In this document: piece after piece, positions 5,018 through 59,733 of the stretch
How positions within the stretch are numbered: position 1 is the stretch's first letter
Layout of the letters: the number at the start of each line of letters is the position of its first letter
Made by a program: the position numbers and the translations under genes
Notes under the pieces: generated by a model
What the model was told of the DNA's origin: nothing
The model's input: only the letters and a program-made list of their open reading frames with translations
Databases searched by the model: none
From: Candidatus Nomurabacteria bacterium RIFCSPHIGHO2_01_FULL_37_25
GTDB taxonomy: Bacteria; Patescibacteriota; Minisyncoccia; Phycocordibacterales; UBA9973
Direction: 5' to 3'
Assembly (NCBI GenBank): GCA_001786765.1
Contig: MFTH01000013.1
Location: 19,974 to 83,973, forward strand
Length of the DNA: 64,000 nt

Positions 5018-5041
5018 AATCCGCCTTGACCAGGTCAAGGC
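5018..5041. repeat. AATCC + 19-bp palindrome GCCTTGACC-A-GGTCAAGGC, copy 1
   Basis: Second copy at 18457-18480. Confidence 0.85.
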
Positions 5042-5119
5042 AAGATTAGCAAGCAAAATTAAAATTCTGTTGAATCAGCGGTGTGACTATTTTAGTATAA
5101 CTCTTTGACTTTTCCTACG

Positions 5120-5194
5120 TGGTGCTCTCGCCAAGAATCGAACTTGGATCGCCAGCTTCGCAGGCCAGCATTCTATCCGTTGAACTACGAGAGC
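5120..5194 (-). tRNA. tRNA-Arg(GCG), CCA encoded
   Basis: Cloverleaf GCTCTCG...CGAGAGC-A-CCA; anticodon loop CT-GCG-AA; T-loop TTCGATT. Confidence 0.93.
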
Positions 5195-5295
5195 AATATT
5201 TTACATTAGCAGTTTTTGGGTAAAAATCAAAATTGGATATTGAATGCAGGTAAGAAAAATTTGACATTTGAGGCATCAAGTGTTATAATGGGGGA

Positions 5296-6312
5296 GTGTT
5301 TAATAAGATAATTAAATTTTCAAAAATGATCCTGACGGGGGCTATTATATTTAGCATCTTCCCTACTTTTGTCTATGCGCAGTATTATTATCAAAATGGA
5401 TATCCATACTATTATAGTCAACCAATCATAAGAACAATTAATGCAACTAATATAACCAGCTCCAGCGCTACTTTGAATGGTTCAGTTACTGGATATAATA
5501 TCTCTAATACTTATAACTTTAGCATGTGGTTTGAATACGGAAGGAATGCCAATTTTGGATATTCTACATTCCGTAATTCTTTTAATTCTGGGTATCCTAA
5601 TTATAGTTCAAATATTGCATCGCTTGATGCAAATACCGTATATTATTTCCGCGCCGTGGCGCAAGGTCCGCAAGGAATTATTTATGGAAATACAACTTCG
5701 TTTATAACTAGTTTCCCAACTATAACAAACATAAACACGGAAAATAATAATCTTTCAAATCCTAGTGTTACCACAAACCCCGCAACCTCAATATCAAACA
5801 GAAGTGTAAAGCTAAACTCTTTTATAATAAATTCTATAAACAATCCGTTTACCACTTGGTTCGAATGGGGAACAACTCCAGCCTTGGGAAATATAAGCCC
5901 AATGACAGCCCTTGGAGCGCTACCTTCCGCAAAGCACATAAATACCATCACAGAACTCGCTCCAGGAACTACTTATTATTTCCGCGCAGTGGCGCAAAAT
6001 CCATTTTCAAGAATCAATGGCGCTACTTTTAGCTTTACAACAAGTAATGCTATAAGCCAAATTAATGCTGTGGAAAAAACAGAAGAAAACACTACTGAGA
6101 TAAATACTAGCAAAGAAAATAAAGTTAACACAAATATCTTAGAATCTGCGGAATCTGCGTTTGGGGCAAATTTGATTGGAGCTGGCTCTTTTCTTCCAGT
6201 TAATATTTTTGGCTGGCTTCTTTTAACTATTCTTATACTCGCGCTAGTACTTCTGGCCGAATATCTTTATCATGATTTATTCGGGAAAAAATCAAAACAA
6301 AAACACTCCTAA
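5296..6312 (+). CDS. Surface protein with two fibronectin type III-like repeats and C-terminal TM anchor
   Basis: Repeats WFEYG..LDANTVYYFRAVAQ / WFEWG..LAPGTTYYFRAVAQ; signal peptide; GTG start. Confidence 0.8.
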   Translation: MFNKIIKFSKMILTGAIIFSIFPTFVYAQYYYQNGYPYYYSQPIIRTINATNITSSSATLNGSVTGYNISNTYNFSMWFEYGRNANFGYSTFRNSFNSGYPNYSSNIASLDANTVYYFRAVAQGPQGIIYGNTTSFITSFPTITNINTENNNLSNPSVTTNPATSISNRSVKLNSFIINSINNPFTTWFEWGTTPALGNISPMTALGALPSAKHINTITELAPGTTYYFRAVAQNPFSRINGATFSFTTSNAISQINAVEKTEENTTEINTSKENKVNTNILESAESAFGANLIGAGSFLPVNIFGWLLLTILILALVLLAEYLYHDLFGKKSKQKHS

Positions 6313-6336
6313 AAATCTGTGTTATATTTATACCCA

Positions 6337-7008
6337 ATGCGAATAAATAAATATCTTGCTCTTAAAAAAATCTCTACCAGACGAGGGGCGGACGAGCTAA
6401 TAAAAGGAAAAAAGGTCTTTATTAATGGCAAGCTAGCGTTACTTGGCAGTAAAGTGAATGAAAAAGATAAAATAGAAGTAAAAGGAGCGAAGCAAAAAGA
6501 ATATAAATATTTTATTTACAATAAACCAATTGGAGTAGAAACAAGCTCGCCAAAAGATGATTTATTCCCGTTAGGCAGATTAGACAAAAATTCACACGGG
6601 CTTTTGATACTCACAAATGACGGACGCATCACCGACGCTCTTTTGAATCCTAAATATTTTCACGAAAAAGAATACGTCGTTAAAACTTCTAATAAACTGC
6701 GTTCTAGTTTTAAACAAAAAATGGAAACTGGAGTAAATATTGAGGGCTTGCCCGCCTTGCATACGCAAGCAGGATATATGACCAAGCCTTGCAAGGTTAA
6801 AATTATAAATGATTTTACTTTTAGAATAACTTTGACTGAAGGAAAGAAACATCAAATCAGACGCATGTGCTCCGCGCTTTTTCAAGAAGTCGCTGACCTA
6901 AAACGTGAAAGAATTATGAATATAAAATTGGGCGATCTAAAATTGAATGCCCTTCGAGAAATAAAAGGTGAAGAATTGACTGTTTTCCTAGATCAAGTGC
7001 TTCATTAA
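6337..7008 (+). CDS. RluB/RluF/RsuA-family pseudouridine synthase with S4 domain
   Basis: MRINKYLA..STRRGAD, GRLDKNSHGLLILTNDG, LTEGKKHQIRRM; extra LPALHTQAG insert. Confidence 0.93.
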   Translation: MRINKYLALKKISTRRGADELIKGKKVFINGKLALLGSKVNEKDKIEVKGAKQKEYKYFIYNKPIGVETSSPKDDLFPLGRLDKNSHGLLILTNDGRITDALLNPKYFHEKEYVVKTSNKLRSSFKQKMETGVNIEGLPALHTQAGYMTKPCKVKIINDFTFRITLTEGKKHQIRRMCSALFQEVADLKRERIMNIKLGDLKLNALREIKGEELTVFLDQVLH

Positions 7009-7176
7009 TCCTGTTATAGAAAAATAAAATTATGCTTGATAAAACGAATTCTTCTATGATATACTCCCCCACACACAAAGTAGGTCGCAGATCCTGAAGG
7101 CTTGGCCTGAACGGATAAAGAAAAGAGTCGATTTCGTAGAACACTTTTGTATTTAACAATTTAATTAAAAAAATCA

Positions 7177-7377
7177 ATGACTGGCACAATAAAAAGACTT
7201 GTAACTGATAAAGGTTTCGGCTTTATTGCTGGAGAAGAACTTCCAAAAGATCTATTTTTTCACCGCAATTCTCTTGTGGACGTAAATTTTGACGAACTCA
7301 GAGAAGGTGATGCTGTTTCTTTTGAAACAGAAGAATCACCAAAGGGATTGAACGCTACAAACGTGAAGCGCGCATAA
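7177..7377 (+). CDS. Cold-shock protein
   Basis: KGFGFI, DLFFH, KGLNATNV; ~115-nt 5' leader after TGn-TATACT promoter. Confidence 0.95.
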   Translation: MTGTIKRLVTDKGFGFIAGEELPKDLFFHRNSLVDVNFDELREGDAVSFETEESPKGLNATNVKRA

Positions 7378-7435
7378 TTTTAGAGGTAAAATCAGAATTA
7401 TCGCTTAAAAACATCAGAGCATTCTTTCAAATAAG

Positions 7436-7460
7436 AACCATCCTTAGGGGTGGTTTTTAT
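7436..7460 (+). terminator. Intrinsic terminator after csp gene
   Basis: AACCATCC-TTAG-GGGTGGTT followed by T-rich tail. Confidence 0.75.
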
Positions 7461-7496
7461 TTTATTTTCGTAATTTCAACGTTTAACAGGGGTGAC

Positions 7497-7536
7497 TTAT
7501 ACACATTTGCTTTAATCTTCTGTACCATGTTAAAAT
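7497..7536 (+). promoter_or_regulatory. DnaA box (TTATACACA) abutting a sigma70 promoter of nrdAB
   Basis: Box 7497-7505; TTGCTT 7507-7512, 18 nt, TGn-TAAAAT 7531-7536. Confidence 0.6.
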
Positions 7537-7577
7537 TGTGTTTGTCGCAAACAATTAAATTAACAAATGTTTATGAG

Positions 7578-7626
7578 TTAGGTGGGTGGAGCTTCGGTGT
7601 GAATCCAGCCCTGTCGCGCAAAGGTT
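7578..7626 (+). promoter_or_regulatory. Truncated cobalamin-riboswitch-like core in nrdA leader
   Basis: GGAGCT-TC-GGTGTGAATCC-AGC-CCTGTCGCGCAAAGGT resembles the cobalamin riboswitch core; 3' B12-box not visible. Confidence 0.55.
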
Positions 7627-7654
7627 TATTTTTATTATTTTTAAGATATATGCT

Positions 7655-10450
7655 ATGCCAATGCTCGAAATAAAAAAAAGAAATGGGAATATTGTTCCTT
7701 TTGATGTAGAAAAAATTACTGCCGCAATGGGTAAAGCATTTATCGCATCAAATCAACCTCTCCCTAAGGATACACTGCTAGATATAACCAAAGATATTGT
7801 TCGAACTTTGGAAGACCAATTCCCTGAACAAGTTCCTTCTGTAGAACACGTGCAAGATCTTGTTGAACTCGCTCTTATGAAAGCTGGGTTTCTTGATGTC
7901 GCAAAGAATTACATTGTTTATCGTTATGAACACACTAAAATACGCGCCGAGAAGAAACAGGAATTCTTAGAAAAAGTAGAAACCAAAGGATTTGTCGTAC
8001 ATACCCGAGACGGAAGCAAAGAACTCTTTTCTGAAAAAAAAGTTCGCGAAACACTTGCGGTGTTTATAAAGGGATATGAATCTATAATAGATATTGATCT
8101 AGTCCTCACCCAACTTAAACATGATCTTTACGAAGGTATCACAACGGACGAAATATCACGATCGCTGACGCTTGTCATGCGCTCGATGATTGAACGCGAT
8201 CCAGCATATTCAAAAATTGCGGCGCGAATGCTTATGGACAGAATATATGCAGATGTCTTTGGTCATGGATACAATACTGCTCAACTTAAAGAAGAGCATT
8301 CAAAAATATTCGCGCGCAATATCAAAGATGCAGTTGCGCGCAATCTGCTTGATGCTCGGATGCTTGATTTTGATCTTATAAAACTTGGCAGTGCGTTACA
8401 ATTAGAAAATGATGATCTTTTTGAATACATGGGGCTTGAGATTCTCGCTTCTCGCTACTGTTTAGAAGATCTGGACGCAAAAAAACCGTTTGAAACTCCA
8501 CAGATGTTTTGGATGCGTATTGCTATGGGACTTTCACTCAATGAGCCTGAGAAAACAAAGATAAAAACAACCCTTGAGTTCTATGATGTGTTGTCGAATT
8601 TCTACTACACCCCTGGCGGTCGCACGCTCTTTCAATCAGGCGCGGTAAAAGCTCAACTCTCTAACTGCTTTTTGAATGTTGTGCCGGACTCGCTTGACTC
8701 TATATTCAAATCTTTTTCTGATAACGCGCAATACCTAAAATGGTCAGGCGGTACAGGAACAGCCTGGAGCAAAGTTCGAGCAACAGGGTCTTTCATTAAA
8801 GGTACAGGTGTGGGAAGCCAAGGGGTAGTTCCATTTCTCAAAATCGCAAATGACATCAATACCGCAATTAATCGTTCCGGCAAGCGACGTGGCGCTGGTT
8901 GCGTGTACCTAGAAACGTGGCATCTTGATATTGAAGATTTTCTTGAGCTTCGTAAAAATACAGGAGACGAGCGACGTCGAACTCACGACATAAACACCGC
9001 TAATTGGGTTCCGGACCTCTTTATGAAGCGTGTGCGCGAAGGGGGCGAATGGACGCTTTTCTCGCCTTCAGATACTCCCGATTTACCAGAACTTTATGGT
9101 AAAGCGTTTGAAGAACAATATAAAAAATATGAAGCAATGGTTGAGCGCGGAGAAATCAAACTCTACAAACGCATCTCTGCGGCTGACCTTTGGAAAAAAA
9201 TGCTAGCCATGTTGTTTGAAACTGGACATCCTTGGATTACCTGGAAAGACCCAAGCAATATCCGAAGTCCACAAGACCACGCAGGAGTAATTCATAATTC
9301 AAATCTCTGTACGGAAATAACCCTCAATACGAGCGAAGATGAAACCGCTGTTTGCACTATTGGATCATTGAACTTTGCAAAATTTGTTAACAACGGGAAA
9401 TTTGATACACATCTCATAAGTCGAGTGACAGAGACGGCAATGCGAATGCTCGATAATGTTATTGACCTAAACTATTATCCAACCGAAGATGCAAAACGCG
9501 GAAATATGCGCCATCGTCCGGTGGCTTTGGGTATCCGCGGTTATCATGATGCATTATACCTTCTCGGCATTCATTTTGATTCAGGAGAAGCGCTTGATTT
9601 TGCGGACGAAAGCATGGAAATCGTCGCATATAATGCCATACTTGCCTCAAGTAAACTCGCCAAAGAAAAAGGAACTTATGAAACATATAAAGGTTCTAAA
9701 TGGGATCGAAACATCTTTCCCCAAGACACCATTGCATTACTTGCGGAAGAACGCGGAGAAGAAGTGCCTCTTCCGAAGAGCGGAAAACTAGATTGGACTC
9801 CCGTGCGTGAACACGTTAAGAAATACGGCATGCGCAATTCAAATACAATGGCAATAGCTCCGACTGCTTCAACAGCGAATTTGGTCGGATGCATTCCATG
9901 TGTAGAACCAATCTACAAAAACATCTATGTGAAATCTAATAAAGAGGGCGATTTTGTGGTCGTAAATAAATATCTAGTTCAAGATTTGAAAACGCTAAAT
10001 CTTTGGAATGACGACATCTTAAATAAAATTAAATATGCTGATGGTAGTATTCAGGAAATTGCGGAGATTCCAACCGACTTGAAAAGAAAATACAAGGAAG
10101 TTTTTGAAATTGAGGGACGTTGGCTAATTGAAGCGGCCGCCAGAAGAGGCCGTTGGATGGATCAATCACAATCCCTTAATATTTTTTATTCTGGCAATTC
10201 AGGTCGTGAACTATCAGAGTTATATTTCCTTGCTTGGAAGTTGGGACTAAAAACAACATATTACCTGCGTACTCTAGGCGCTTCACAAGTCGAAAAAGCA
10301 AGTATCTCGACTGCAGAGTTCGGCGCAACCCATACAAGACAAAAAGTGGTTATCCCAACAGAATCTCCTAAATCAAAAATTGATCCAGCTTTTCTTGCTA
10401 AAGTCGCTATGGGAGAAACAGTCGGTATATGTGAATCGTGCGAAGGATAA
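7655..10450 (+). CDS. nrdA: Ribonucleotide reductase class Ia alpha subunit, two ATP-cones
   Basis: IKKRNG and VHTRDG cones, SNCF, SNLCTEI, APTAS, KTTYY, C-terminal CESCEG. Confidence 0.96.
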   Translation: MPMLEIKKRNGNIVPFDVEKITAAMGKAFIASNQPLPKDTLLDITKDIVRTLEDQFPEQVPSVEHVQDLVELALMKAGFLDVAKNYIVYRYEHTKIRAEKKQEFLEKVETKGFVVHTRDGSKELFSEKKVRETLAVFIKGYESIIDIDLVLTQLKHDLYEGITTDEISRSLTLVMRSMIERDPAYSKIAARMLMDRIYADVFGHGYNTAQLKEEHSKIFARNIKDAVARNLLDARMLDFDLIKLGSALQLENDDLFEYMGLEILASRYCLEDLDAKKPFETPQMFWMRIAMGLSLNEPEKTKIKTTLEFYDVLSNFYYTPGGRTLFQSGAVKAQLSNCFLNVVPDSLDSIFKSFSDNAQYLKWSGGTGTAWSKVRATGSFIKGTGVGSQGVVPFLKIANDINTAINRSGKRRGAGCVYLETWHLDIEDFLELRKNTGDERRRTHDINTANWVPDLFMKRVREGGEWTLFSPSDTPDLPELYGKAFEEQYKKYEAMVERGEIKLYKRISAADLWKKMLAMLFETGHPWITWKDPSNIRSPQDHAGVIHNSNLCTEITLNTSEDETAVCTIGSLNFAKFVNNGKFDTHLISRVTETAMRMLDNVIDLNYYPTEDAKRGNMRHRPVALGIRGYHDALYLLGIHFDSGEALDFADESMEIVAYNAILASSKLAKEKGTYETYKGSKWDRNIFPQDTIALLAEERGEEVPLPKSGKLDWTPVREHVKKYGMRNSNTMAIAPTASTANLVGCIPCVEPIYKNIYVKSNKEGDFVVVNKYLVQDLKTLNLWNDDILNKIKYADGSIQEIAEIPTDLKRKYKEVFEIEGRWLIEAAARRGRWMDQSQSLNIFYSGNSGRELSELYFLAWKLGLKTTYYLRTLGASQVEKASISTAEFGATHTRQKVVIPTESPKSKIDPAFLAKVAMGETVGICESCEG

Positions 10451-10461
10451 CAACAATAAAT

Positions 10462-12154: not shown

Positions 12155-12155
12155 A

Positions 12156-14404: not shown

Positions 14405-14488
14405 GCGCGGGTGGCGAAACTGGTAGACGCACTACCTTGAGGTGGTAACGCTCGCAAGGGCATGGAGGTTCAAATCCTCTCCCGCGCA
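14405..14488 (+). tRNA. tRNA-Leu(GAG)
   Basis: GCGCGGG...CCCGCGC-A; loop TT-GAG-GT; long variable arm; followed by CCT. Confidence 0.93.
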
Positions 14489-14650
14489 CCTATTTTCAAA
14501 ATTGCTGATGTCGCGCGTAGCGTGGCAAAACTGAAATTTAACCGCCAATCCTATTAAGAGTTGTCCCTGCCCTCCCAGCGCGCGGACAACATCTTGCGTT
14601 GGACAAGACTTTAGGTTGACACTTTTTTTTATTAATATACACTTGCTTTT

Positions 14651-18428: not shown

Positions 18429-18480
18429 TCGCCTTGACCAGTCGCCTTGACCAGTCGCCTTGACCAGGTCAAGGCGGATT
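18429..18480. repeat. 3 x 13-bp tandem TCGCCTTGACCAG ending in the 19-bp palindrome + GGATT, copy 2
   Basis: Direct reading; same palindrome as 5023-5041. Confidence 0.9.
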
Positions 18481-18500: not shown

Positions 18501-19088
18501 ATGATCTTAAAAAAGTTTTTAATAATTTTATTAAGTGTGTTCATTGTTGTAGGTGTTGTTGTAAGCGCATTTTTTATTTCTAGAAAACACACTTCTTCTG
18601 AAAACAACACGACTGTATCTCCACCCACAAGTAGCACCACCCAAGAACCGACTATCGAATCTTCTACAAACAAAAATCCTGAAAAAATTACTGATCCGCA
18701 TCACCACCTTGTTGACGTCGAAGATGTTATGAAGGAAATCCGCGCAACATTCAAATTGGTGCTGGTAGATCCTGATATAGTAGTGCAAAAAGAAAATCCT
18801 TGTCCTGCTTGCTATAGTGTAGTAAGCCCAGACAAGACTCTACGTGCTTTCACTACTTATGAGTCTGGCACAGGCGATAGAATATTTATTGAAGAAACGC
18901 AGACTAAAAAGATTTTTGAAATACAGGGGTTACCACTCCCATACCGTCCTTTTTCTGGTCTTGTTTGGATTAATAATCATATTTTGGTTTTTGATCGCTG
19001 GTCTCAACCACATTATGGAATTCATTATGCAGTTGATTTTTCAATAAAGACTTTACTTATAGCCGCGCCTTATGCCGTTTTTTCTTAA
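18501..19088 (+). CDS. Hypothetical membrane-anchored protein with S/T/P-rich linker
   Basis: N-terminal TM; C-terminal blade-like SPDKT..RPFSGLVW. Confidence 0.65.
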   Translation: MILKKFLIILLSVFIVVGVVVSAFFISRKHTSSENNTTVSPPTSSTTQEPTIESSTNKNPEKITDPHHHLVDVEDVMKEIRATFKLVLVDPDIVVQKENPCPACYSVVSPDKTLRAFTTYESGTGDRIFIEETQTKKIFEIQGLPLPYRPFSGLVWINNHILVFDRWSQPHYGIHYAVDFSIKTLLIAAPYAVFS

Positions 19089-20025: not shown

Positions 20026-20080
20026 ATTGGCATAGATGTAATCTAGCAGAAAATCCAAAAAAATGCAATTACAATACTTT

Positions 20081-20210
20081 GAATCACAAAACTTTAAAAA
20101 TATAACTTTCTGCAAGGGTTTCGAGGCTGGCGAGCCGAGAACTTCAGAATTTTTTAAGCTTCGAAAAATTCGTACCGGAAGAAAGTTGATATTTTAGAGT
20201 TTTGTGATTA
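20081..20210. mobile_element. Y-shaped MITE/REP-like element, arm type A, copy 1
   Basis: ~29-bp imperfect terminal inverted arms; core shared with 32903, 46026, 57311 copies. Confidence 0.88.
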
Positions 20211-20231
20211 ACGATATGCTATGATTAATTA

Positions 20232-32902: not shown

Positions 32903-33033
32903 AATCACAAAACTCATAAAAATATCAACTTTCTTCCGGTACGGATTTTTTGAAGCTTAAAAAATCCTGAAGTTCTCGGCTCGACAGCCTCGAAACCCCT
33001 GCAGAAAGTTATATTTTTAGGGTTTTGTGATTC
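32903..33033. mobile_element. Y-shaped MITE/REP-like element, arm type A, copy 2 (core reversed)
   Basis: Reverse-complement match to 20081-20210; 4 bp from polA stop. Confidence 0.88.
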
Positions 33034-33037
33034 ACGA

Positions 33038-35470
33038 TTATTTAACTTCTCCGAAATTGTTACCAAAACCAGAATGCACTTCGAGAGGAATGTCGGTTTT
33101 ATAATGTAAATATGATCTCTCTAGCACACCGTTCATAGCGTTTTTTATTATTTTATCAGCTTTTGACAATACACTTTCTTCTATTTCATAAACTAATTCA
33201 TCATGAATTTGAAGCACAAGATGAACTTTATCTAAAATTCCCGCCTTTTTAATATCCTCTTCTATATACCTTATGGCAAGCTTGATAATGTCAGCCGTGG
33301 CAGTACCTTGAATCGGCGCATTAGTGGCAGTACGTTCTGCCATATTTTTCAAAAATGGAATTTTAGAATTTATATTTGGGAAATATCTGCGTCTGCCAAA
33401 TAAAGTCTCAGTAAAAGATTTTTCTCTCGCAAATTTCTTTACTTCTTCTAAGTAATTTCGCACTCCCGAGAATTGATTGAAATAATTATCATAAAACTTT
33501 TGCGCTTCCTCGCGTGTATTTTCCCGTCCTCCAGCGTGGCCTCCGAGGTTTTTCCGCAGGGCTGTTACCCCCATACCATAAATTATGCCGAAGTTTATCA
33601 CTTTCGCTTTACGACGCATTTCGCTGTCTACTTTTTCTATCGGCACACCGAAAACGAAAGACGCTACGCCAGCATGCGGGTCTTTTTTCTCACGAAAAAT
33701 CTGCGTCATTTTTTTATCATTAGAGAGCATCGCCGCCACCCGGAGCTCGATCTGGCTGTAATCAAAAGCGCAAAGCTTGTAACCTTTTTGCGCCACAAAA
33801 CCATTTCGAATTCTTTTACCCAATTCTGTCTTTATTGGTAAATTTTGCAAATTTGGATCTTGAGAAGAAAATCTTCCTGTTGTTGAACCATTTTGTAAGA
33901 ATTTTGCATGTAATCTATTGTCAACACCAACCATTTTTGGAATCACATCAATATAAGTAGAGAGTAATTTTTGTAATTCCCTATAAGCAAGTATTTCTTT
34001 TACTATCGGGTTTGTTTCTTCTAATTCTTCTAAAACTGAAACCTTAGTGGAAAAAGAACCGGTAGCATTTTTCTTTTTACCAGACTTCATGCCCATCTTG
34101 CCAAAAAGCACTTCGCTCATTTGTTTGGGTGAGTTGATGTTAAACTCAGTACCTGCCATTTTATAAATTTTATATGTTAATTTATCTAATTCTTTATGAT
34201 ACTCTTGTGAGAGTTTCTCAAAATATTTTTTGTCTATTAAAATTCCATAATCCTCCATCTCTTTTACTATATGCATTATTGGACGTTCTATTTCTTCAAA
34301 AACTTTATCTAGTTTGTCATCCTTTAACTTTTTGAAAATATAAGTGTAAGCAACATCAAATGAATCAGTATTGGCAAACATTAAAATATCTTCTAGTTTT
34401 GGATTTGAAATATCAGAATTTATAAGCCAAAGAGCAATGCTGGCTTCTTGAAGCTTTTGAAGCGAAATTGATTCCTTATTTCCCTCCTGCACCTCACCCG
34501 GCCTTTCGGCCACCCTCTCCTTAGTAAGGAGAGGGGCTGGGGGTGAGGTCTTCTTTTCTCCAAAAAAGCTTTTCAGCCTTGCAAACAAAGAGCGGAATTC
34601 AAAAAGCTGAAAAATTTGTTCTATTTTTTTTAAATCCGCATTTTCCCAAAAAGTTTTTGCAGGCAGAATAAAATTTATCGTTGCGTCTGTCCGAATAGTC
34701 GCCAAAGTTTTAGAAAAAAGCGCTTCTTCTTCATTATTTTTCAAAAGTTCTATTACCCTAGGACTAAAACCAGCTTTTATAAAAGACTCCTCGTCTTTCT
34801 TAATTTTTTTATAAATTTCTTCAACCGCGCCGAAATTTAAAATTAAACTCGCCGCTGTTTTTTCGCCAATTCCTTTGATGCCAATAATATTATCCGACGG
34901 GTCGCCCCGGAGTCCTTTGTAGTCCGGCAAAAATTTCGGCCCGAAACCAAACCGCTCCACAACTTTATTTTCGTCATATAAAATAGTGTCATTGATTCCC
35001 TTCTTCAGGGTGTACACTTGAACTTTTTTGTCATTTATCAATTGCATAGTATCCATATCACCCGAAGCAATGATGATTTTTAAATCATTATTCTGTTTGT
35101 ATTTAGAAACAATTGTTCCGAGCACATCATCTGCCTCAAAGCCTAGAGCGTCATAAATAGGCACATTGAAAGCTTCAAAAATCTGGCGAGATTTTTTTAA
35201 TTGCATAACCAAAGCTTCATCAGTCTTGGCTCGACCAGCCTTGTAAGCGTCATACGCTTCGTGCCGAAAAGTCTTGCCGGGCAAATCATAACAAGCAACA
35301 ATATAATCCGGCTTCAAGTCATCTATAATCTTCATTAGCATTGTGGAAAGACCATACAATGCTCCAGTAGGTTCACCTTTAGATGATAAAAATTCCGGCA
35401 AGGCATGATAAGCGCGATGTATTATTGCATGAGCATCTAGTAATACGAGAGTTTTAGTATCTTTGGACAT
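33038..35470 (-). CDS. polA: DNA polymerase I (5'-3' exonuclease + polymerase; little 3'-5' exo region)
   Basis: FEADD, GDPSDNI, DYSQIELR, NFGIIYG, QGTATAD, QIHDEL. Confidence 0.97.
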   Translation of the reverse strand: MSKDTKTLVLLDAHAIIHRAYHALPEFLSSKGEPTGALYGLSTMLMKIIDDLKPDYIVACYDLPGKTFRHEAYDAYKAGRAKTDEALVMQLKKSRQIFEAFNVPIYDALGFEADDVLGTIVSKYKQNNDLKIIIASGDMDTMQLINDKKVQVYTLKKGINDTILYDENKVVERFGFGPKFLPDYKGLRGDPSDNIIGIKGIGEKTAASLILNFGAVEEIYKKIKKDEESFIKAGFSPRVIELLKNNEEEALFSKTLATIRTDATINFILPAKTFWENADLKKIEQIFQLFEFRSLFARLKSFFGEKKTSPPAPLLTKERVAERPGEVQEGNKESISLQKLQEASIALWLINSDISNPKLEDILMFANTDSFDVAYTYIFKKLKDDKLDKVFEEIERPIMHIVKEMEDYGILIDKKYFEKLSQEYHKELDKLTYKIYKMAGTEFNINSPKQMSEVLFGKMGMKSGKKKNATGSFSTKVSVLEELEETNPIVKEILAYRELQKLLSTYIDVIPKMVGVDNRLHAKFLQNGSTTGRFSSQDPNLQNLPIKTELGKRIRNGFVAQKGYKLCAFDYSQIELRVAAMLSNDKKMTQIFREKKDPHAGVASFVFGVPIEKVDSEMRRKAKVINFGIIYGMGVTALRKNLGGHAGGRENTREEAQKFYDNYFNQFSGVRNYLEEVKKFAREKSFTETLFGRRRYFPNINSKIPFLKNMAERTATNAPIQGTATADIIKLAIRYIEEDIKKAGILDKVHLVLQIHDELVYEIEESVLSKADKIIKNAMNGVLERSYLHYKTDIPLEVHSGFGNNFGEVK
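34491..34549. repeat. Y-shaped CCCTCTCC/GGAGAGGG element inserted in frame in polA
   Basis: ACCTCACCC/GGGTGAGGT outer stem, two inner hairpins; sibling at 59676-59733. Confidence 0.9.
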
Positions 35471-35589
35471 TACGAAATTATAACAATAAACGAGGAGTAT
35501 AAACAAATTTGTTTATTTACTGTTTGAGAGTTTCGTAATTTACGATTATGTGGTAATCCATATAACTTTAATATATACTTTATACATAA

Positions 35590-45995: not shown

Positions 45996-46025
45996 ACCAT
46001 TTTTATTATACTACACCCTTTATCA

Positions 46026-46162
46026 TGAATTACGAAACTCGTCGAAGGCATGTCTTTTTTAGGGGGTTTCGAGGCTGTCGAGCCGAGAACTTCAGGATTT
46101 TTTAAACTTAAAAAAATCCGTACCCTAGAAAAAGACATGCCTAGAAAGAGTTTCGTAATTCA
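46026..46162. mobile_element. Y-shaped MITE/REP-like element, arm type B, copy 1; overlaps 3' end of the IMPase gene
   Basis: TGAATTACGAAACTC..GGCATGTCTTTT / AAAAGACATGCC..GAGTTTCGTAATTCA; shared core. Confidence 0.9.
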
Positions 46163-46905
46163 AAGTTTATCAGCTTTTTAATCTGGTCATAAATCATGGC
46201 ATTGCTAGCAATAATTCCCTCTGTGGTAGAGGTTAAAGCCTCACCATTGAAATCAGTAAACTTTCCACCAGCCTCTTCTACTAAAAGCTTCCCGGCAAAT
46301 TCTGGAAATGTATCATAATTAAAAGAAATAGCAAAATCCGCCCTACCACAAGCCACATAAGCGTAATGCACTCCCAGAGAACCGAGGTTCCTCATCACGC
46401 TACTATTTTGCGATAAAATGGAAATGGTTTTTAAAAATTTTTCTCTGTGCGGAGGAACTGCGTATGGACCAATCATAAAAATCATGTCTTGATTGCGCTT
46501 AGAAACATAAACTCTTTTATTATTTAAAAATGTTCCTTTGCCTTTTTCTGCGGTAAATAATTCTTTATTGGAGGGATCATAAACTACCGCAAACTGCGTT
46601 TCTCCTTTATAAAGATGACTTAACACCACCGAATAGTGAGGCATGCCTTGAATAAAATTTATTGTATTACTAATAGGATCAATGATCCAGACATTTTCAT
46701 CTTCAATAAAAATATTGTGCATCTCTTCAGCATAGACTGAATGAGCGCCCGGAAAAGTATTTATCAGATTAGCAAGTTCTGTTTCTATTTCTATATCTTT
46801 CTGCGTCAACCATTGTTTGCTTTTCCCTACATCAAGGGTATGTCCCGCAATAGCCGGAAGTGAGTCCCCAAGCTCAACTATTTTTTTAATTATTTCTTGA
46901 TACAT
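46141..46905 (-). CDS. Inositol monophosphatase (SuhB-like)
   Basis: AEE, WIIDPISNTINF, ACGRAD, EEAGG; some catalytic positions diverged. Confidence 0.85.
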   Translation of the reverse strand: MYQEIIKKIVELGDSLPAIAGHTLDVGKSKQWLTQKDIEIETELANLINTFPGAHSVYAEEMHNIFIEDENVWIIDPISNTINFIQGMPHYSVVLSHLYKGETQFAVVYDPSNKELFTAEKGKGTFLNNKRVYVSKRNQDMIFMIGPYAVPPHREKFLKTISILSQNSSVMRNLGSLGVHYAYVACGRADFAISFNYDTFPEFAGKLLVEEAGGKFTDFNGEALTSTTEGIIASNAMIYDQIKKLINFELRNSF

Positions 46906-53640: not shown

Positions 53641-53641
53641 A

Positions 53642-54403: not shown

Positions 54404-54439
54404 ATTTATATATTTATATAATAGATATTGCTATATAGA

Positions 54440-55537
54440 TTATCTATTCATCGGCATTATAAGATAAAGAAATGATGTATCCCCCACTGAAGACACCACT
54501 ATGGGGTTGCTAGGACCAAAGAATTTTATAGATATGCTATCGGTAATGATTGACTGGAAACAATCTAAAAAATATTTGTAATTAAAACCAAGCTCAACAT
54601 TTTCTCCTGTTATGGCGGCATCCAAATATGTTTTATTTTCTCCGATATCATTATTGGAAGACGAAAGCTCAAAAATTTTTTCTTTTGGTTTAATAACCAG
54701 ATTTACTTGATTAAATTTACCTGAAAAGATATTGGAAAGTTTAAGCGCGTTTAACAGGTCTTGTTTTAGCACTATGGCATTAGTTCCTGAAGTTTTGGGG
54801 ATGATTTGACGATAATCTGGAAAAACTCCATCAATTACCCGCGAAGTTAGATAAAAATCATCGGACGAAAAAGAAATTTGGTTTTTGTTAAAACATACTT
54901 TTATAATCGAAGTGGATTCCCCAAAAACTCGGAGTATTTCAGAAATATTTTTAAACGGAATAAGAATACCTGCTATTTCAGGAAGTCCTTTTATTTTTAT
55001 TTTTTTCTCAGACAGCCTAAAAGAGTCTGTGGAAACAAAAACCAAGTTGTCCTCATTTGTATATATAAAAACGCTTGAAATTTCAGGTTTTATATCAGAA
55101 ACAGAAGAGCTGTAATAAACTGATTTTATTCCCTCTATTAATTTTTTTGATTCTATTTCAAAACTTGTTCCCACCACCTTCGGTATTGTTGGGAAGTCTT
55201 CGTGCGGTTGCCCTTTTAGTTTTATCTTGCTTTTTTTGGTTTGGATGAGTAAATTACCATCAACACTTTCCAGATAAATATTTTCATTTTGAAAAACATT
55301 GGAAAAAATGCCATTTAATACCGACCCAGAAACCGCGACAATGCCTTCTTTTTCTATTTTTGCTGGAATTTCAACCTCAATACCAAGACTCAAGTTTGTA
55401 GATCTAAGTTTTAAAGATTTTAGAGAGGCAATAAGTAAAATTGAATTTAAAATCGGTAAAGTTAAATTTTTACCTGTAATTTTTTCCACTTGTAAAATTT
55501 TATTTTTTATTTCTTCAATTTTGCATTCTAGTTTCAT
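54440..55537 (-). CDS. dnaN: DNA polymerase III beta sliding clamp
   Basis: LPILNSI, STDSFRL, FPDYRQIIP, GFNYKYFLD, LIMPM; next to dnaA. Confidence 0.97.
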   Translation of the reverse strand: MKLECKIEEIKNKILQVEKITGKNLTLPILNSILLIASLKSLKLRSTNLSLGIEVEIPAKIEKEGIVAVSGSVLNGIFSNVFQNENIYLESVDGNLLIQTKKSKIKLKGQPHEDFPTIPKVVGTSFEIESKKLIEGIKSVYYSSSVSDIKPEISSVFIYTNEDNLVFVSTDSFRLSEKKIKIKGLPEIAGILIPFKNISEILRVFGESTSIIKVCFNKNQISFSSDDFYLTSRVIDGVFPDYRQIIPKTSGTNAIVLKQDLLNALKLSNIFSGKFNQVNLVIKPKEKIFELSSSNNDIGENKTYLDAAITGENVELGFNYKYFLDCFQSIITDSISIKFFGPSNPIVVSSVGDTSFLYLIMPMNR

Positions 55538-55643
55538 CCCGTTTAGAAGTTTTCCTGATTTTACTTAATTTTATTAAATAATATCAGATAACTTGAATTA
55601 TTTTTTTTTATAATCTTTCCCCGAAAGGTATCTTCTAACGGGA
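55538..55643. mobile_element. CCCGTTAGAA-type hairpin insertion at dnaN start with TTCAT (ATGAA) duplication
   Basis: CCCGTTTAGAAG / CTTCTAACGGG; TTCAT at 55533-55537 and 55644-55648. Confidence 0.85.
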
Positions 55644-55649
55644 TTCATG

Positions 55650-55786
55650 TTTATATTTTATATATTTAATTTATTAATACTATTAGATACCTTGATAAGT
55701 GGATAACTCGTTTTGTTTTTAATTTATAAAGCTATTTTTTAATTTTTGTTTTTAATTTAAGTCTAATAACTTATAATAACTTTTAT
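55650..55786. other. Probable oriC unwinding region (dnaA-dnaN intergenic)
   Basis: Minus strand TTATCCACT + degenerate box, then CTA ATA GTA TTA ATA trio-like run (55672-55686) and very AT-rich DNA. Confidence 0.7.
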
Positions 55787-57130
55787 TTACTTAAACATAA
55801 TTCGTATTTGCTCCAGTTCTTGTAAAAGTTGTGAGTCGTTTTTGAGATCGTTTTTAATTTTTATACAGGAATGTATTACTGTTGTGTGGTCTTTCCCGCC
55901 CAGCTTTTCCCCAATCAACGGATATGATATATTAAAGTCTTCTCGAAGTAAATACATAACCACTTGTCTTGCTTTGACGATATCTTTTTTTCTGGTTTTT
56001 TCATAAACTGAAGCTTCTTCTAATTTATAATATTCACTCACTATTTTCACAACATCTTTTATTGCTATATTTTTTTTAGGCTTCATGTTGTTTTTTAGCA
56101 AGTTTTTTACTTCAATGAGAGTTAAAGGCTTGTTTTTCAAGCGATAATGGCAAACTATAATATTCAAACTCCCCTCAAGCTCTCGAATATTGCCATCTAC
56201 CGACAGAGCCACATACTCTAGTATTTCTTGGTCTAGGTCAATATCAAGTTCTTTTAATTTTACTTTTAAAATCGCAAGACGAGCCTCATACTCTGGCGGA
56301 GAGATATCTACTATCATTCCGGCCGCAAAACGAGACTTTAAACGGTCAGCCAATTCCGGAATGTAATTTGGATGTTTATCAGAAGAAAAAATAATTTGCT
56401 TGTTATTTTCGTGAAAAGTGTTGAATGTGTGGAAAAGTTCTTCCTGAATTTTTTCCATTTTGCCGATGAATTGAATGTCGTCTATGATTAAGAGGTCGTA
56501 TTTGCGATATTTTTCTTTAAAAGAATTTGCTTTATTGCTTTGAAGCGAGCTGATAAAATCAGTAGCGAATTTCTCCAAAGTCATATAGTGGACCTTTTTG
56601 TTTGGGTATTTATCTTTTATTGAATTTCCTACCGCTTGAATTAAATGAGTTTTACCGAGACCGGTGCCTCCATAGATAAAAAAAGGGTTGTATTTCGTGC
56701 CGGGATTATCTATTATGGCGAGACTCGCGGCGTACGCGAGCTCGTTGAAAGTTCCCACAATAAAAGAATTAAAATGATAGCGCGGATTCAAATTATTTTC
56801 TGGATTTATGTAAAGATCTCGCAAGGGCAGTTCTTTGTTTACGCTTGTTTCTATTATTGTTGTCGTTTTTTCTTTATTGTTTTCTATTTTAGTGATGGTG
56901 TATTCCACTGCGCGCATATTTTCATACGCATCGGCTATGGTTTTTGTGATAAGTTTGTGGTATTTATTTATGAGCCAATCGCGAACAAACTCATTTGGCA
57001 CACCAATATAGATGATGCCTGTGTCTTCTTTAACAATGGATGTATTTTTAAACCACGTGCTGAAATTTGCCTTTGACATGCCCGCCTCTATTTCTACCAG
57101 ACAATTTTTCCAAAGCTGTGTTGTGTTCAT
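55787..57130 (-). CDS. dnaA: Chromosomal replication initiator DnaA
   Basis: YNPFFIYGGTGLGKTHL, IIDDIQF, RLKSRF, NIRELEG, GGKDHTTVIH. Confidence 0.98.
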   Translation of the reverse strand: MNTTQLWKNCLVEIEAGMSKANFSTWFKNTSIVKEDTGIIYIGVPNEFVRDWLINKYHKLITKTIADAYENMRAVEYTITKIENNKEKTTTIIETSVNKELPLRDLYINPENNLNPRYHFNSFIVGTFNELAYAASLAIIDNPGTKYNPFFIYGGTGLGKTHLIQAVGNSIKDKYPNKKVHYMTLEKFATDFISSLQSNKANSFKEKYRKYDLLIIDDIQFIGKMEKIQEELFHTFNTFHENNKQIIFSSDKHPNYIPELADRLKSRFAAGMIVDISPPEYEARLAILKVKLKELDIDLDQEILEYVALSVDGNIRELEGSLNIIVCHYRLKNKPLTLIEVKNLLKNNMKPKKNIAIKDVVKIVSEYYKLEEASVYEKTRKKDIVKARQVVMYLLREDFNISYPLIGEKLGGKDHTTVIHSCIKIKNDLKNDSQLLQELEQIRIMFK

Positions 57131-57194
57131 CCTATTAGAAAGCGACTAAATAATAATTTTACTATTGACCATGCCCCGTAAATTTCTAACGGGA
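57131..57194. mobile_element. CCCGTTAGAA-type hairpin insertion at dnaA start with TTCAT duplication
   Basis: CCTATTAGAAA / TTTCTAACGGG; TTCAT at 57126-57130 and 57195-57199. Confidence 0.85.
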
Positions 57195-57267
57195 TTCATT
57201 AGTCTCATATTATACTATTTTTGTTTAACAAAAAAACTCTTGTAAATAGATGAAAACTTATTAACTC

Positions 57268-57287
57268 TGTTGATAAGCTGTGGATAA
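57268..57287 (-). promoter_or_regulatory. Tandem DnaA boxes upstream of dnaA
   Basis: TGTTGATAA (1 mismatch) and TGTGGATAA (perfect). Confidence 0.8.
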
Positions 57288-57310
57288 AAATTTTAGATTC
57301 TAAGTCACTT

Positions 57311-57447
57311 TGAATTACAAAACTCGTCGAAGGCATGTCTTTTTTAGGGGGTTTCGAGGCTGACGAGCCGAGAACTTCAGGATTTTTCAAGCTTCGAAAA
57401 ATCCGTACCCTAGAAAAAGACATGCCTAGAAAGAGTTTCGTAATTCA
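57311..57447. mobile_element. Y-shaped MITE/REP-like element, arm type B, copy 2
   Basis: Near-identical to 46026-46162. Confidence 0.9.
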
Positions 57448-57463
57448 CGACTTAAGTCAGTAT

Positions 57464-57593
57464 AAAAAAAGTAGGCATATCTCACGGTGGAGACACGCCT
57501 GATTGATTGGACGCCGCGAATTCTAATTTCGAATCGGTTAAGTAGAATTCGCGGCGTTTTTTAGATAAAAAATCACCCCCTTTCATTCCCAAC
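57464..57593 (-). ncRNA. Candidate ~130-nt sRNA with its own promoter and terminator
   Basis: TTGACA-17-TATATT (57628-57600); 15-bp hairpin; 11-bp terminator stem with G-U pairs + T7. Confidence 0.5.
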
Positions 57594-57665
57594 TCAACAA
57601 ATATATTCTCGTACAGGTATTATGTCAAGTTGCTGAATGTTTATTTTTGTTGTAATATCAAATAT

Positions 57666-57800
57666 ATGTCATTTACATACAAACCTAAAAAAAGGAAAAG
57701 AGCCAGAAGCCACGGCTTTTTGGTCAGATCTAGGAGCAAGACCGGAAAGAAAGTCCTTAAAAAAAGACGTCAAAAAGGCAGAAAAAAGCTCAGTGTTTAA
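57666..57800 (+). CDS. rpmH: 50S ribosomal protein L34 (not in ORF track)
   Basis: MSFTYKPKKRKRARSHGFLVRSRSKTGKKVLKKRRQKGRKKLSV. Confidence 0.97.
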   Translation: MSFTYKPKKRKRARSHGFLVRSRSKTGKKVLKKRRQKGRKKLSV

Positions 57801-57802
57801 TA

Positions 57803-58126
57803 ATGCTATCTAAAAAAAACAGAGTAAACACAAAAGAGGTTAAGAAAATCTTTACAAAAAGTAGCTTTTTAAATTCTCCCAGTTTTACCTTTAGATATTT
57901 TAAAAACAACAATAAAGAAATAAAAATTTCTTTTATTGCCTCTAAAAATATAGCCAAGCTGGCTGTTAAGAGGAATCTGCTTAGAAGACGAGGATATTCT
58001 GTGTTGAAAAAGTATATTCATGAGTTCCCTCTTGGAATTATAGGTGTCTTTATATTTAAAAAATATCAAGATGATATTTTGACAATTGAAAATGAAATTA
58101 AAAACATACTTAATAAAATCAATTGA
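57803..58126 (+). CDS. rnpA: Ribonuclease P protein component
   Basis: AVKRNLLRRR motif; position after rpmH. Confidence 0.93.
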   Translation: MLSKKNRVNTKEVKKIFTKSSFLNSPSFTFRYFKNNNKEIKISFIASKNIAKLAVKRNLLRRRGYSVLKKYIHEFPLGIIGVFIFKKYQDDILTIENEIKNILNKIN

Positions 58127-58322
58127 TTTTTACCAAAAGTATTTTCCATTTTTCAAAAAACCAAGTTGTGTTTTTTATCCTACTTGTTCGGAATATACTA
58201 AAGAAGCGATAAATAAATATGGAATTATTAAAGGACTTCGCCTTTCTTTGCTTCGTATTTTGCGTTGTCATCCGTGGCAGAAGAATCATATTGATCCCGT
58301 TAGAAATCGCGAGGGCTCGTAG
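58092..58322 (+). CDS. yidD: Membrane protein insertion efficiency factor
   Basis: CVFYPTCSEY..AI.KYG..RILRCHPW..DPV. Confidence 0.93.
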   Translation: MKLKTYLIKSIDFYQKYFPFFKKPSCVFYPTCSEYTKEAINKYGIIKGLRLSLLRILRCHPWQKNHIDPVRNREGS

Positions 58323-58343
58323 CGACCCTCTATCTCTAACGGG
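58295..58343. mobile_element. CCCGTTAGAA-type hairpin insertion in yidD 3' end with ATTGA(TCC) duplication
   Basis: CCCGTTAGAAAT / ATCTCTAACGGG; inner GAGGG..CCCTC hairpin; original DPVQ-stop left downstream. Confidence 0.85.
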
Positions 58344-58414
58344 ATTGATCCTGTACAATAAATAATATTCAATTTCTTATTGAACTTTCTCCCGTTTTAA
58401 TATAAGATAAGAAA

Positions 58415-59173
58415 ATGCTCTCAAATATCTGGAATACTGTTTTATATGAGCCATTATTAAACGCGCTGGCTTTTTTAGTTTCAATTACCCCCGGCGAGGA
58501 TGTCGGTATTGCTGTTGTTATTCTTACTATTTTGGTTAAAATTATACTTTTCCCATTGTCTCAAAAATCCATTGAGAGTCAGGCAGAAATGAATATCCTT
58601 AGTCCGGAGCTTAAGAAGATAAAAGAAAGTGGAGCGAGTAAAGAAGAGCAAGCTAAACAAACTTTTGAGCTTTATAAAAAACACAAGGTAAATCCTTTTT
58701 CTGGATGTTTTTTGGTCTTGATTCAGATTCCTATTATTTTTGCTTTATACTTTGTTTTTTTAAAAGGAGTAAATTTTGAAGCCGGGGCGCTCTATTCTTT
58801 TATTCATATCCCAGAGCATGTGAATATGATTTTCTTTGGGGTTTTTGATATAAGCAAGGAAAATTTTGCCTTGGCGATTTTAGCAGGAGTGTCCCAGTTT
58901 TTACAAGCGCATTTTATGCCAAAACCCATTCTTTCTTCAAACACAAATGGTTCTATCGGTTCTTTTTCTGAGAGTTTTGCTAAAAGTATGCATATGCAGA
59001 TGAAATATGTTTTTCCAGTTTTTATTTTTGTTCTCTTATATACAGGAATTCCCGGGGTTGTTCCACCTCTTTCTGGAGCAGTTGCGTTGTATTGGATTAC
59101 AAGCAATTTATTTATGGTAGGTCAGCAGATTTATGTTAAAAAGGAGAAAAATTTTAAGATGGTAATTAAATAA
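58415..59173 (+). CDS. yidC: Membrane protein insertase YidC (short form)
   Basis: LYKKHKVNPFSGC..IQIPI, ALYW.TSN. Confidence 0.94.
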   Translation: MLSNIWNTVLYEPLLNALAFLVSITPGEDVGIAVVILTILVKIILFPLSQKSIESQAEMNILSPELKKIKESGASKEEQAKQTFELYKKHKVNPFSGCFLVLIQIPIIFALYFVFLKGVNFEAGALYSFIHIPEHVNMIFFGVFDISKENFALAILAGVSQFLQAHFMPKPILSSNTNGSIGSFSESFAKSMHMQMKYVFPVFIFVLLYTGIPGVVPPLSGAVALYWITSNLFMVGQQIYVKKEKNFKMVIK

Positions 59174-59189
59174 AATAATTTTAAACGAA

Positions 59190-59669
59190 ATGAATAAAGA
59201 TGAAATCCAAAATTTAATAAAAGAATTGATAGAAAAAACCACCATTAAACTCCATAAAATTTCTATTTCTGAGGAAAGTCCTACGAATACTTGGGTTTCT
59301 CTTGAGGTTAGCGAACCGCACTTTTTTATGGGTAATGATGGCGAGGCGCTTTATTCATTGAATCATCTTGTTCGCAGGATAATCGAAACTAAAACATTTC
59401 CAAGAAAAAAAGATGAAAACATAAACAACAATATCTTGATTGATATAAACGGTTTTCAAAAAAAGCGTGTGGAAAATATTCGCGCGGTAGCGCATATGAT
59501 GGCAGAGAGAGCAAGGTATTTTAAATCAAGCATAGAAGTTGACCCTATGTCAGCTTTTGAACGCAGGGTTGTGCATGAATTTTTATCTGATGCGACCGAC
59601 CTAAAGACAGAATCAATGGGTTTCGGACCCTCTCGTCGAGTGGTAATAAAATATATTGGCGCAATATAA
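59190..59669 (+). CDS. Jag/KhpB-like KH + R3H RNA-binding protein
   Basis: G.DGEALYSL, PMSAFERRVVH, TES.G.G..RRVVI. Confidence 0.88.
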   Translation: MNKDEIQNLIKELIEKTTIKLHKISISEESPTNTWVSLEVSEPHFFMGNDGEALYSLNHLVRRIIETKTFPRKKDENINNNILIDINGFQKKRVENIRAVAHMMAERARYFKSSIEVDPMSAFERRVVHEFLSDATDLKTESMGFGPSRRVVIKYIGAI

Positions 59670-59675
59670 TTAAGA

Positions 59676-59733
59676 ACCTCACTCCGCCTTTGGCACCCCT
59701 CTCCTTATTAAGGAGAGGGGTCGGGGGTGAGGT
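59676..59733. repeat. Y-shaped CCCTCTCC/GGAGAGGG element, intergenic copy between convergent genes
   Basis: Homologous to polA insert 34491-34549. Confidence 0.9.

Follow-up and report, generated by a model that had tools for sequence, protein, structure and literature searches.

Why should a short palindromic repeat stand in both orientations between the same asymmetric flanks, with no transposase beside it? The question is raised by a stretch of 64,000 nucleotides (hereafter the window) in the genome of Candidatus Nomurabacteria bacterium RIFCSPHIGHO2_01_FULL_37_25 (G000; the window is C13:19974-83973). The genome has 726,250 bp on 17 contigs, in the size range of candidate-phyla-type bacteria, is about 36% GC and is rated 98% complete; it was compared with 120 other genomes of its genus and 150 other genomes of its order. 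A first-pass annotation of the window described three unrelated palindromic families as flip/flop isomers. We find flipping in the first of them, family 1. We argue that family 1 is probably a non-autonomous MITE (miniature inverted-repeat transposable element) derived from an IS982-type insertion sequence (IS). It carries a three-helix core, and its two forms likely arise by inversion of the whole palindrome in place, with no HUH enzyme involved.

The 68-nt core of family 1, used as the query for a search of the whole genome, is found at 40 loci. At 25 of these it is enclosed by paired terminal inverted repeats (TIRs, TGAATTACGAAACTC and its complement), where both TIRs were required and up to 3 mismatches were allowed. 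Such a copy is typically 137 bp long (range 131-157 bp) and has no coding capacity. It is built as X7 - 3-nt tip - TGAATTACGAAACTC - arm - 68-nt core - arm - GAGTTTCGTAATTCA - 3-nt tip - X7, with X7 the 7-mer directly outside each tip. Subfamily B has 20 copies that are mostly 95-100% identical. Subfamily A has the same TIR, tips and core with other arms, and about 11 copies have still different arms or degenerate ends. Folded on either strand, the copy at 57307-57451 reaches -63 kcal/mol at its minimum free energy, and dinucleotide-shuffled controls put z at -8.4 for one strand and -9.4 for the other. The long stem with two inner hairpins that was described at first is therefore sound, the four copies reported in the window are where they were placed, and profile searches agree that the window holds no transposase.

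The flanks ACTTT and ACGA had been taken for an asymmetric target, and this does not hold. The 7-mers directly outside the tips are identical (7/7) in 12 of the 25 copies and match at 6/7 or better in 13. Non-cognate pairs of left and right 7-mers reach the 6/7 level in 10 of 600 cases, and a control register that ignores the tips gives 0 of 25. A few more copies have repeats of 6 or 8 bp in a shifted register. Since the 7-bp duplications lie outside the tips, the tips must be part of the element and not of its target. The ACTTT side is thus made up of a duplication that often ends in A (a target preference), the tip CTT and the T of the TIR, while the ACGA side is the A of the TIR followed by the tip CGA. 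These tips, CTT-type and CGA-type, are unlike each other, and both are located inside the target duplication. Relatives have many others (CTT, CTC, TTT, TTG, CTG, CCT, TCG, TCA and TCC), so the CTT/TCG pair is a marker of the burst in this genome.

Orientation was scored with the core as the reference, and the tips were then classed as left or right. Type I has a CTT-type tip (CTT, CTC or TTT) to the left of the core and a CGA-type tip (CGA or TGA) to the right. Type II is the mirror image: its left tip is TCG, TCA or TTG and its right tip AAG. The 25 paired copies divide into 11 of type I, 10 of type II and 4 with one odd tip; for subfamily B (n = 20) the numbers are 8, 10 and 2. It is for family 1, then, that the claim of two orientations stands, and for families 2 and 3 it falls. 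Every interior haplotype (two loops of hairpin B, AA and C, and a 147-bp form whose hairpin is altered) is represented in type I and in type II, and in subfamily B a 5-nt block of arm mismatches always moves with the core. This means that the entire block from TIR to TIR has been inverted relative to the tips. At least 3 or 4 inversions would be needed to produce these combinations, unless gene conversion between copies spread the variants.

Inversion between the arms had been offered in the first-pass annotation as a fallback, and it is the reading that the evidence favours. The block could be inverted where an extruded hairpin or cruciform has its base, by strand exchange or template switching, and a single strand switch would give the rare copies with symmetric tips, which are seen as CTT/AAG at C16:66779 and as TCG/CGA in G105. 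Recombination within the 15-bp perfect TIR would be another route. Arm complementarity might be kept by templated correction from arm to arm or by selection. Whole-palindrome inversion is usually hidden by perfect inverted repeats, and here the unlike 3-nt tips are a built-in marker that exposes it. Together with the inversion at an orthologous locus and the structured cargo, both described below, they make this a concrete and testable case for how palindromic repeats diverge while their arms stay complementary. One can also imagine the tips as flaps of donor flank carried along at each transposition. Worked through by hand, that scheme predicts a 10-bp offset duplication or products with a single tip, not X7-tip-element-tip-X7, and we reject it; the copy at 46026 alone could be a single-tip product.

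The window copies are of both types. A type I copy of subfamily A lies at 20077..20214 on the plus strand (TIR to TIR 20080-20211, tips CTT/CGA, core forward), with its duplication degraded to 4/7. A type I copy of subfamily B lies at 57308..57450 (plus strand, TIR to TIR 57311-57447, tips CTT/CGA), with TAAGTCA at 57301-57307 and, offset by 2 nt, at 57453-57459. Its conserved core, with hairpin A, hairpin B and the junction bases, occupies 57346..57413 (plus). The type II copy of subfamily B is at 46023..46165 (plus strand, TIR to TIR 46026-46162) and has TCA as its left tip and AAG as its right one. TTTATCA stands at both 46019-46025 and 46166-46172, and the left tip may belong to this duplication. 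The last 22 nt of an open reading frame (ORF) of the inositol-monophosphatase family (46141-46905, minus) overlap the copy. The intergenic gap at this locus is 45 nt in G050 and 19 nt in G062, compared with about 200 nt in G000; the short gaps are consistent with empty sites, in sequences too diverged for base-by-base alignment. The fourth copy, of subfamily A and type II-like, is at 32903..33037 with its core on the minus strand. Its right TIR (33020-33034) is followed by CGA and its left TIR is degenerate (AAATCAC..). There is also a solo right end (GAGTTTCGTAATTTA + CGA) at 35528..35545 (minus), in the divergent intergenic region beside polA.

A sister species (G060) has a 978-bp element on contig C39 (L017:1517-2494) with the ends CTT-TGAATTACGAAACCC ... 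GAGTTTCGTAATTCA-AAG, that is, with a CTT tip at both ends. Against NF033520, the IS982-family model with a cut-off of 130 bits, its 267-aa protein reaches 139.1 bits, and it matches PF13612 at 2.9e-31. The 15-nt TIR is common to this IS982-family element and family 1. We call family 1 IS982-derived because its TIR matches a transposase-bearing IS of the sister species and its copies have 7-bp duplications; an IS982 DDE transposase would have mobilised it in trans. The TIR (at most 1 mismatch) is present in 23 of the 120 other genus genomes, compared with 3 matches in all for a reversed control pattern. In G096 and G111 it is frequent at contig ends and is followed by IS-like sequence. NF033520 has matches in 6 of the 120 genomes, over the cut-off in G060 only. 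The interior of family 1 does not appear to come from the G060 element by internal deletion, for by eye the IS ends past the TIR look unlike its arms and core. The core is also found without the TIR, which bears against an origin as an IS internal-deletion remnant.

What, then, does the shell carry? The core is a three-helix junction with the conserved junction bases GGGG..ACTTCAG..CGTACC. Hairpin A has tandem G.A mismatches within CGAG..CGAG and a GNCG loop, and hairpin B has a T/A stem with a loop of AAGCTT type. The structure (P1, hairpin A and hairpin B) was tested on 39 sequences, all different, of which the window supplied 3 and relatives 36. Of its 26 pairs 18 change on both sides, and 88.7% of the cells are paired. 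The covariation score is 0.426, compared with 0.151 in shuffles (0/500 reach the observed value) and at most 0.127 with slid partners. RNAalifold independently finds compensatory change in 14 of 27 pairs. The tandem G.A/A.G is kept, in one of two registers, in 36 of the 39 sequences, and the paired columns hold 25 G.T/T.G against 8 A.C/C.A, although the sequences are mutually related and these counts overstate their independence. The excess of G.T over A.C and the tandem G.A point to one strand being constrained. Selection on the single-stranded fold of the forward strand may have retained the core. It might be a site for a structure-specific protein, or a terminator-like insulating module that makes insertions harmless. 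Rfam 15 gives 4 tRNAs only in the window, nothing better than E = 0.5 on the element and nothing at three further loci. A hammerhead or other self-cleaving ribozyme is rejected, since by eye the CUGANGA..GAAA core is unmet (A6 varies between A, G and T) and Rfam gives nothing. An integron attC or VCR-like array is rejected as well: the copies are dispersed, lie on both strands and have duplications.

A covariance model built on the core alignment finds the core in 34 of the 150 other order genomes (30 of 130 other genera) with scores up to 106 bits in other families, where the weak matches of about 27-40 bits may be partly generic AT-rich hairpins and the five strong ones that were read are clearly the same core. 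G251 alone has 17 cores. Most of the 16 that were read have their own arms of about 20-34 bp, which by eye are perfectly or nearly perfectly complementary. These copies are mostly without the TIR, and one has a recognisable TIR. An empty site in its congener G040 has nothing arm-like. This means that the arms arrive with the element and diverge afterwards, and it rules out the arms as inverted target duplications. The cargo is thus a covarying three-way junction with a conserved tandem G.A, without an Rfam family, in about one fifth of the sampled order genomes. It is a new structured motif, and a partner protein or a role can be sought for it. A bolder reading is that the core is a new module functional as a single strand (DNA or RNA) and selected across the order, set in palindromes that undergo a parvovirus-like flip/flop inside the chromosome. 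An enzyme acting at the base of the cruciform would drive it, be it a resolvase, a hairpin-forming DDE transposase or a RAYT-like HUH protein, and orientation would be both heritable and switchable. We consider this doubtful.

Orthologous loci allow the flip to be followed between species. Locus 1 (G000:C16:30545-30642) lies between a stop codon and a TATAAT..ATG start region and was read in nine relatives. The core is forward in 5 genomes (G000, G085, G280, G007 and G124) and reversed in 3 (G058, G062 and G072); the element is absent in G113, and G107 has one with a different core instead. The match table alone gives gaps of just 5-44 nt in G096, G288, G278, G277 and G276. Between G124 and G072 the arms are homologous and the boundaries agree while the cores are opposite, which we read as an in-place inversion. 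An inversion of this kind at an orthologous locus would make flipping a property of the palindrome and not of transposition. Locus 2 is upstream of a gene judged by eye to be rsmH-like from its N-terminal sequence. G000 and G046 share the element there, with homologous arms and concordant changes on both sides; there is a remnant in G007, a variant in G054, and nothing at 12 of the 15 loci read. Locus 3, between a conserved leader-like motif and the start codon, has the element in G000 and 5 of 15 relatives in one orientation throughout. The other 10 relatives have short GC hairpins there or nothing. The TIR-less copies at such orthologous loci are vertically inherited and not recently mobile. 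The first-pass annotation had held that this would speak against mobility, and so it does for TIR-less copies; those with TIRs are not covered by it.

The leader-like motif is an observation in its own right. It is a conserved stretch of about 90 nt that includes a hairpin (GTTAATC.GTTCGCGTCTAGACA.AAAGTAGTGTT..loop..AACAACACTGTAGTCTGGATACGAAC) at G000:C13:119200-119320 (L063) and at the orthologous L146-L160. It stands upstream of a gene starting ATGCAAAAAAAAGAATAT in the 16 species read and has no Rfam match. It may be an undescribed leader.

Several points weigh against an IS982-derived MITE that inverts in place. The NF033520 search finds no intact IS982 transposase in this 98%-complete genome, where the IS982 trace is a 72-aa remnant of 49% identity (C13:6761-6973) beside a degenerate TIR. 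The 95-100% identical copies of subfamily B are thus unmatched by a visible enzyme; IS copies may be unassembled, given the 17 contigs. The other transposase profiles do not help, for PF00665 finds nothing in G000 and PF01609 just one stop-ridden match of 16.5 bits. The mechanism has its own difficulty. Simple recombination between the arms predicts breakpoints in the inner 14-nt block of identity for about half of the flips, and 0 of 20 subfamily-B copies have one there; with 3-4 flips this is only suggestive. The locus at 46026 has a single orientation, that of the reference, in the public (Logan) contigs of runs X2 and X3. These contigs reach 46051, restart at 46138 and show no differences, and such contigs drop minor variants. 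One orientation there means that flipping is not rapid within those populations. The inversion at locus 1 may be one event in one clade, and the sharing of haplotypes between types could be gene conversion after one ancient inversion. Finally, the core shows no significant preference for one direction with respect to the genes beside it (convergent in 10 cases, divergent in 7, tandem-anti in 15 and tandem-same in 8, with crude, ORF-based gene calls), which fits poorly with a function in read-through RNA.

One could also argue that the repeats are vertically inherited hairpins that serve the host as structured RNA, terminator or insulator, with the IS982-TIR copies a secondary capture and orientation tolerated since the function resides in the long stem. 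The presence of the element in 5-8 species at the three orthologous loci is in line with this, as is the spread of the core through the order. At locus 1 the core of G062 is 97.5% identical to that of G000 while the flanks are about 72% identical, and at locus 3 the element takes the place of the short GC hairpins of the 10 other species between leader-like motif and start codon. Against a host function, no Rfam family matches and there is no bias relative to transcription. The sequence constraint is strand-specific, and still one locus has the core in either orientation. The distribution is patchy: orthologous sites are often empty (at locus 2 in 12 of 15, at locus 3 in 10 of 15), and young high-copy bursts with duplications behave as selfish DNA. 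We consider this explanation possible but unlikely.

Another scenario accepts the MITE and has it invert a single time, long ago. Founders of type I and type II would both have amplified, and the variants they share would come from gene conversion between dispersed copies. Modular exchange between elements does occur, as subfamilies A and B have TIR, tips and core in common with different arms. Both types are also present in G024, and no orientation polymorphism within a population is seen at 46026 in the X2 and X3 contigs. Against this, 3 or 4 interior haplotypes, the complex 147-bp variant among them, are each found in both types, and a TIR-less orthologous locus has inverted independently. 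The CTT/TCG pair is specific to the burst in G000, and relatives have many other tips. A single ancient inversion is therefore quite unlikely in our view, and we favour repeated inversion in place.

The evidence supports the first-pass annotation in that the elements are non-autonomous and their enzyme is encoded elsewhere; it does not support an HUH protein as that enzyme. The idea is of single-stranded DNA elements, like palindrome-associated transposable elements (PATEs) or REPINs, that are moved by a Y1 enzyme (RAYT or IS200-type TnpA) elsewhere in the genome and flip by hairpin nicking and copying. It has some appeal. There are three Y1_Tnp/RAYT-like ORFs in this small genome (C10:97347-97973, C12:15866-16531 and C7:13184-13942), the strand-specific constraint on the core (G.A in 36 of 39, G.T over A.C by 25 to 8) is what an enzyme recognising single-stranded DNA would impose, and inversion of a whole palindrome resembles hairpin transfer. 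Y1 HUH transposition, as in IS200/IS605 and REPIN/RAYT systems, makes no target-site duplication. Family 1 has 7-bp duplications and a TIR in common with a DDE element of the IS982 family. It has no conserved tetra- or pentanucleotide target at one fixed end, and the tips are inside the duplication. A search for RAYT genes bordered by the same repeats had been proposed as a check, and no family 1 or 2 sequence lies within 300 nt on either side of the three ORFs. Y1_Tnp is found in 90 of the 150 other order genomes and is not commoner with the core (it is present in 24 of the 34 genomes that have the core and in 66 of the 116 that lack it, a hand count which assumes, as the handles suggest, that both scans covered the same 150 genomes). 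Five genomes have cores and no Y1_Tnp match: G251 with its 17 cores, G139, G208, G219 and G240. HUH mobilisation of family 1 is thus very improbable. The lesson is one of caution: finding HUH genes in a genome with flip/flop repeats is not enough to conclude that an HUH enzyme moves them.

Two of the RAYT-like ORFs have repeats of their own. The one at C12:15866-16531 is bracketed by direct copies of TAGCTAGGCAAGAC, and the one on C10 has a hairpin ATGTCAAAG-AGACA-CTTTGACAT upstream and CTTTGACAT again downstream. These repeats may be the actual substrates of those HUH proteins.

The remaining fallback, insertion in either orientation into an oriented target ACTT^CGA, is practically out of the question: ACTT and CGA flanks do recur in most copies, but 12 of 25 copies have exact 7-bp direct repeats beyond CTT and CGA, the shorter orthologous sites at 46026 (flanks too diverged for base-by-base alignment) have no recognisable tips, the autonomous IS has CTT at both ends and relatives have many other tips.

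Other observations touch on the shell of family 1. A second cargo is found in the same TIR shell at G000:C14:13640-13765 and G000:C13:115440-115555 and in relatives (L024-L029, L036, L040 and L042). Its core contains GCAGGCTG.CGAGCCGAG followed by an AAAAATC..GATTTTT hairpin, and only the GGCTGNCGAGCCGAG hairpin is common with the family 1 core. A second type of cargo means that the shell carries exchangeable modules. Outside the window, at G000:C10:588-751, a 22-bp mini-copy (CTC-TGAATTACGAAAATCA-CGA, C10:729-751) comes after a full copy of subfamily A, with the 7-mer TTTATTA before, between and after the two. The pair looks like a second insertion into a duplicated target followed by deletion of the palindrome interior, and slippage across the hairpin could have left the 22-bp footprint beside the full copy. 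In two family 1 copies (C10:70245-70401 and C15:36490-36650) the hairpin B loop contains a palindromic, GC-rich insert (..CCTGCCTGCCGGCAGGCAGG..); this loop tolerates, or attracts, another small palindrome.

Family 2 is a real repeat of about 59 nt, GC-rich and Y-shaped as described, with about 5 full and several partial copies in the genome. Its flip did not survive. On the plus strand the two window copies agree in internal order, and the 4-nt flank is no better than chance. The copy at 34491..34549 forms a small Y with the outer stem ACCTCACCC/GGGTGAGGT and two inner hairpins. The polA ORF (33038-35506, minus, with 5'-nuclease and polymerase domains) reads it in frame and stays open across it, and the copy encodes about 20 residues of the linker between the domains (..TSPPAPLLTKERVAERPGEV..). 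The polA of G018 has a homologous linker segment; the linkers of G017, G008, G042 and G009 are unrelated and of similar length. The other copy, at 59676..59733, is between convergent ORFs, an R3H-domain ORF at 59190-59669 (plus) and an ORF at 59738-61126 (minus).

Family 3 (GCCTTGACCAGGTCAAGGC, five copies in the genome) is an odd-length palindrome, and its supposed flip is trivial, for the central base of such a palindrome, if it is A on one strand, is necessarily T on the opposite one. That one copy has A and another T amounts to a single bit of information and gives no support to flipping. One window copy (AATCC-GCCTTGACC-A-GGTCAAGGC) is at 5018..5041, between the end of an FtsX/MacB-type permease ORF and a tRNA-Arg. 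The other (18430..18480, palindrome at 18457-18480) has two extra tandem 13-nt units CGCCTTGACCAGT before the palindrome and is upstream of an ORF at 18501-19088 that has no Pfam match; it looks like an operator with half-site repeats. A shared regulon was sought, and the Pfam matches of the flanking ORFs are unrelated. Elsewhere in the window, ARAGORN could not assign an anticodon ('tg' at position 34) to a tRNA at 14405-14490 (Rfam tRNA, 48 bits), whose anticodon loop may be unusual or which may contain an intron.

How does family 1 compare with known systems? REPINs have conserved stems, a free loop, a RAYT gene flanked by the repeats and no target duplications. Family 1 is like REPIN/RAYT systems and the PATEs of IS200/IS605 in being a palindromic, multi-copy intergenic repeat in a genome with Y1 HUH genes. 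Unlike REPINs, it has a conserved loop (the core), variable stems and target duplications, and no copies of it flank the RAYT-like genes. The flip/flop isomers of adeno-associated virus (AAV) belong to the end of a linear genome and arise by nicking by Rep, an HUH protein, and hairpin transfer at each replication. The likeness to these T-shaped parvoviral termini is in the form, a stem with two inner hairpins, and in the inverted-complement forms relative to the outside sequence at about equal frequency. The difference is that family 1 is internal to the chromosome, has DDE-type duplications and no link to an HUH gene, and has one orientation at 46026 in two public runs.

Family 2 has its own parallel in the Rickettsia palindromic elements (RPE), which are reportedly inserted in frame in genes (Ogata et al. 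in 2000). It is likewise a short palindromic repeat translated in frame in an essential gene, the polA linker of G000 and G018. It belongs to another sequence family and another phylum, and one in-frame copy has been seen. For the flip itself the closest parallel is in plastids. Minute inversions of hairpin loops between short inverted repeats are said to have been described from non-coding plastid DNA by Kelchner and Wendel in 1996. PMC12371153 also deals with plastid minute inversions. They resemble family 1 in being recurrent, homoplasious inversions in place between short hairpin-forming inverted repeats, with orientation differing at orthologous loci. They involve anonymous loops, whereas the segment in family 1 is conserved and covarying, and it behaves in the same way within a transposable shell with unlike tips.

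Our literature search found no relevant paper on MITEs in candidate-phyla bacteria. An IS982-family MITE of about 240 bp derived from ISCca4 is known in Cardinium (PMC9769881). Both that element and family 1 are short, non-coding, bounded by IS982-family inverted repeats, multi-copy in a reduced genome and presumably mobilised in trans. At 137 bp, family 1 differs from the Cardinium element in being palindromic over nearly its whole length, with an interior that is a conserved three-helix module also found without TIRs across the order. Its tips are unlike, its TIR-to-TIR block is found in both orientations and the assembly has no intact partner. IS982-derived MITEs are thus already known and the mobile shell is ordinary. 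The inversion marker, the inversion at an orthologous locus and the structured cargo are not.

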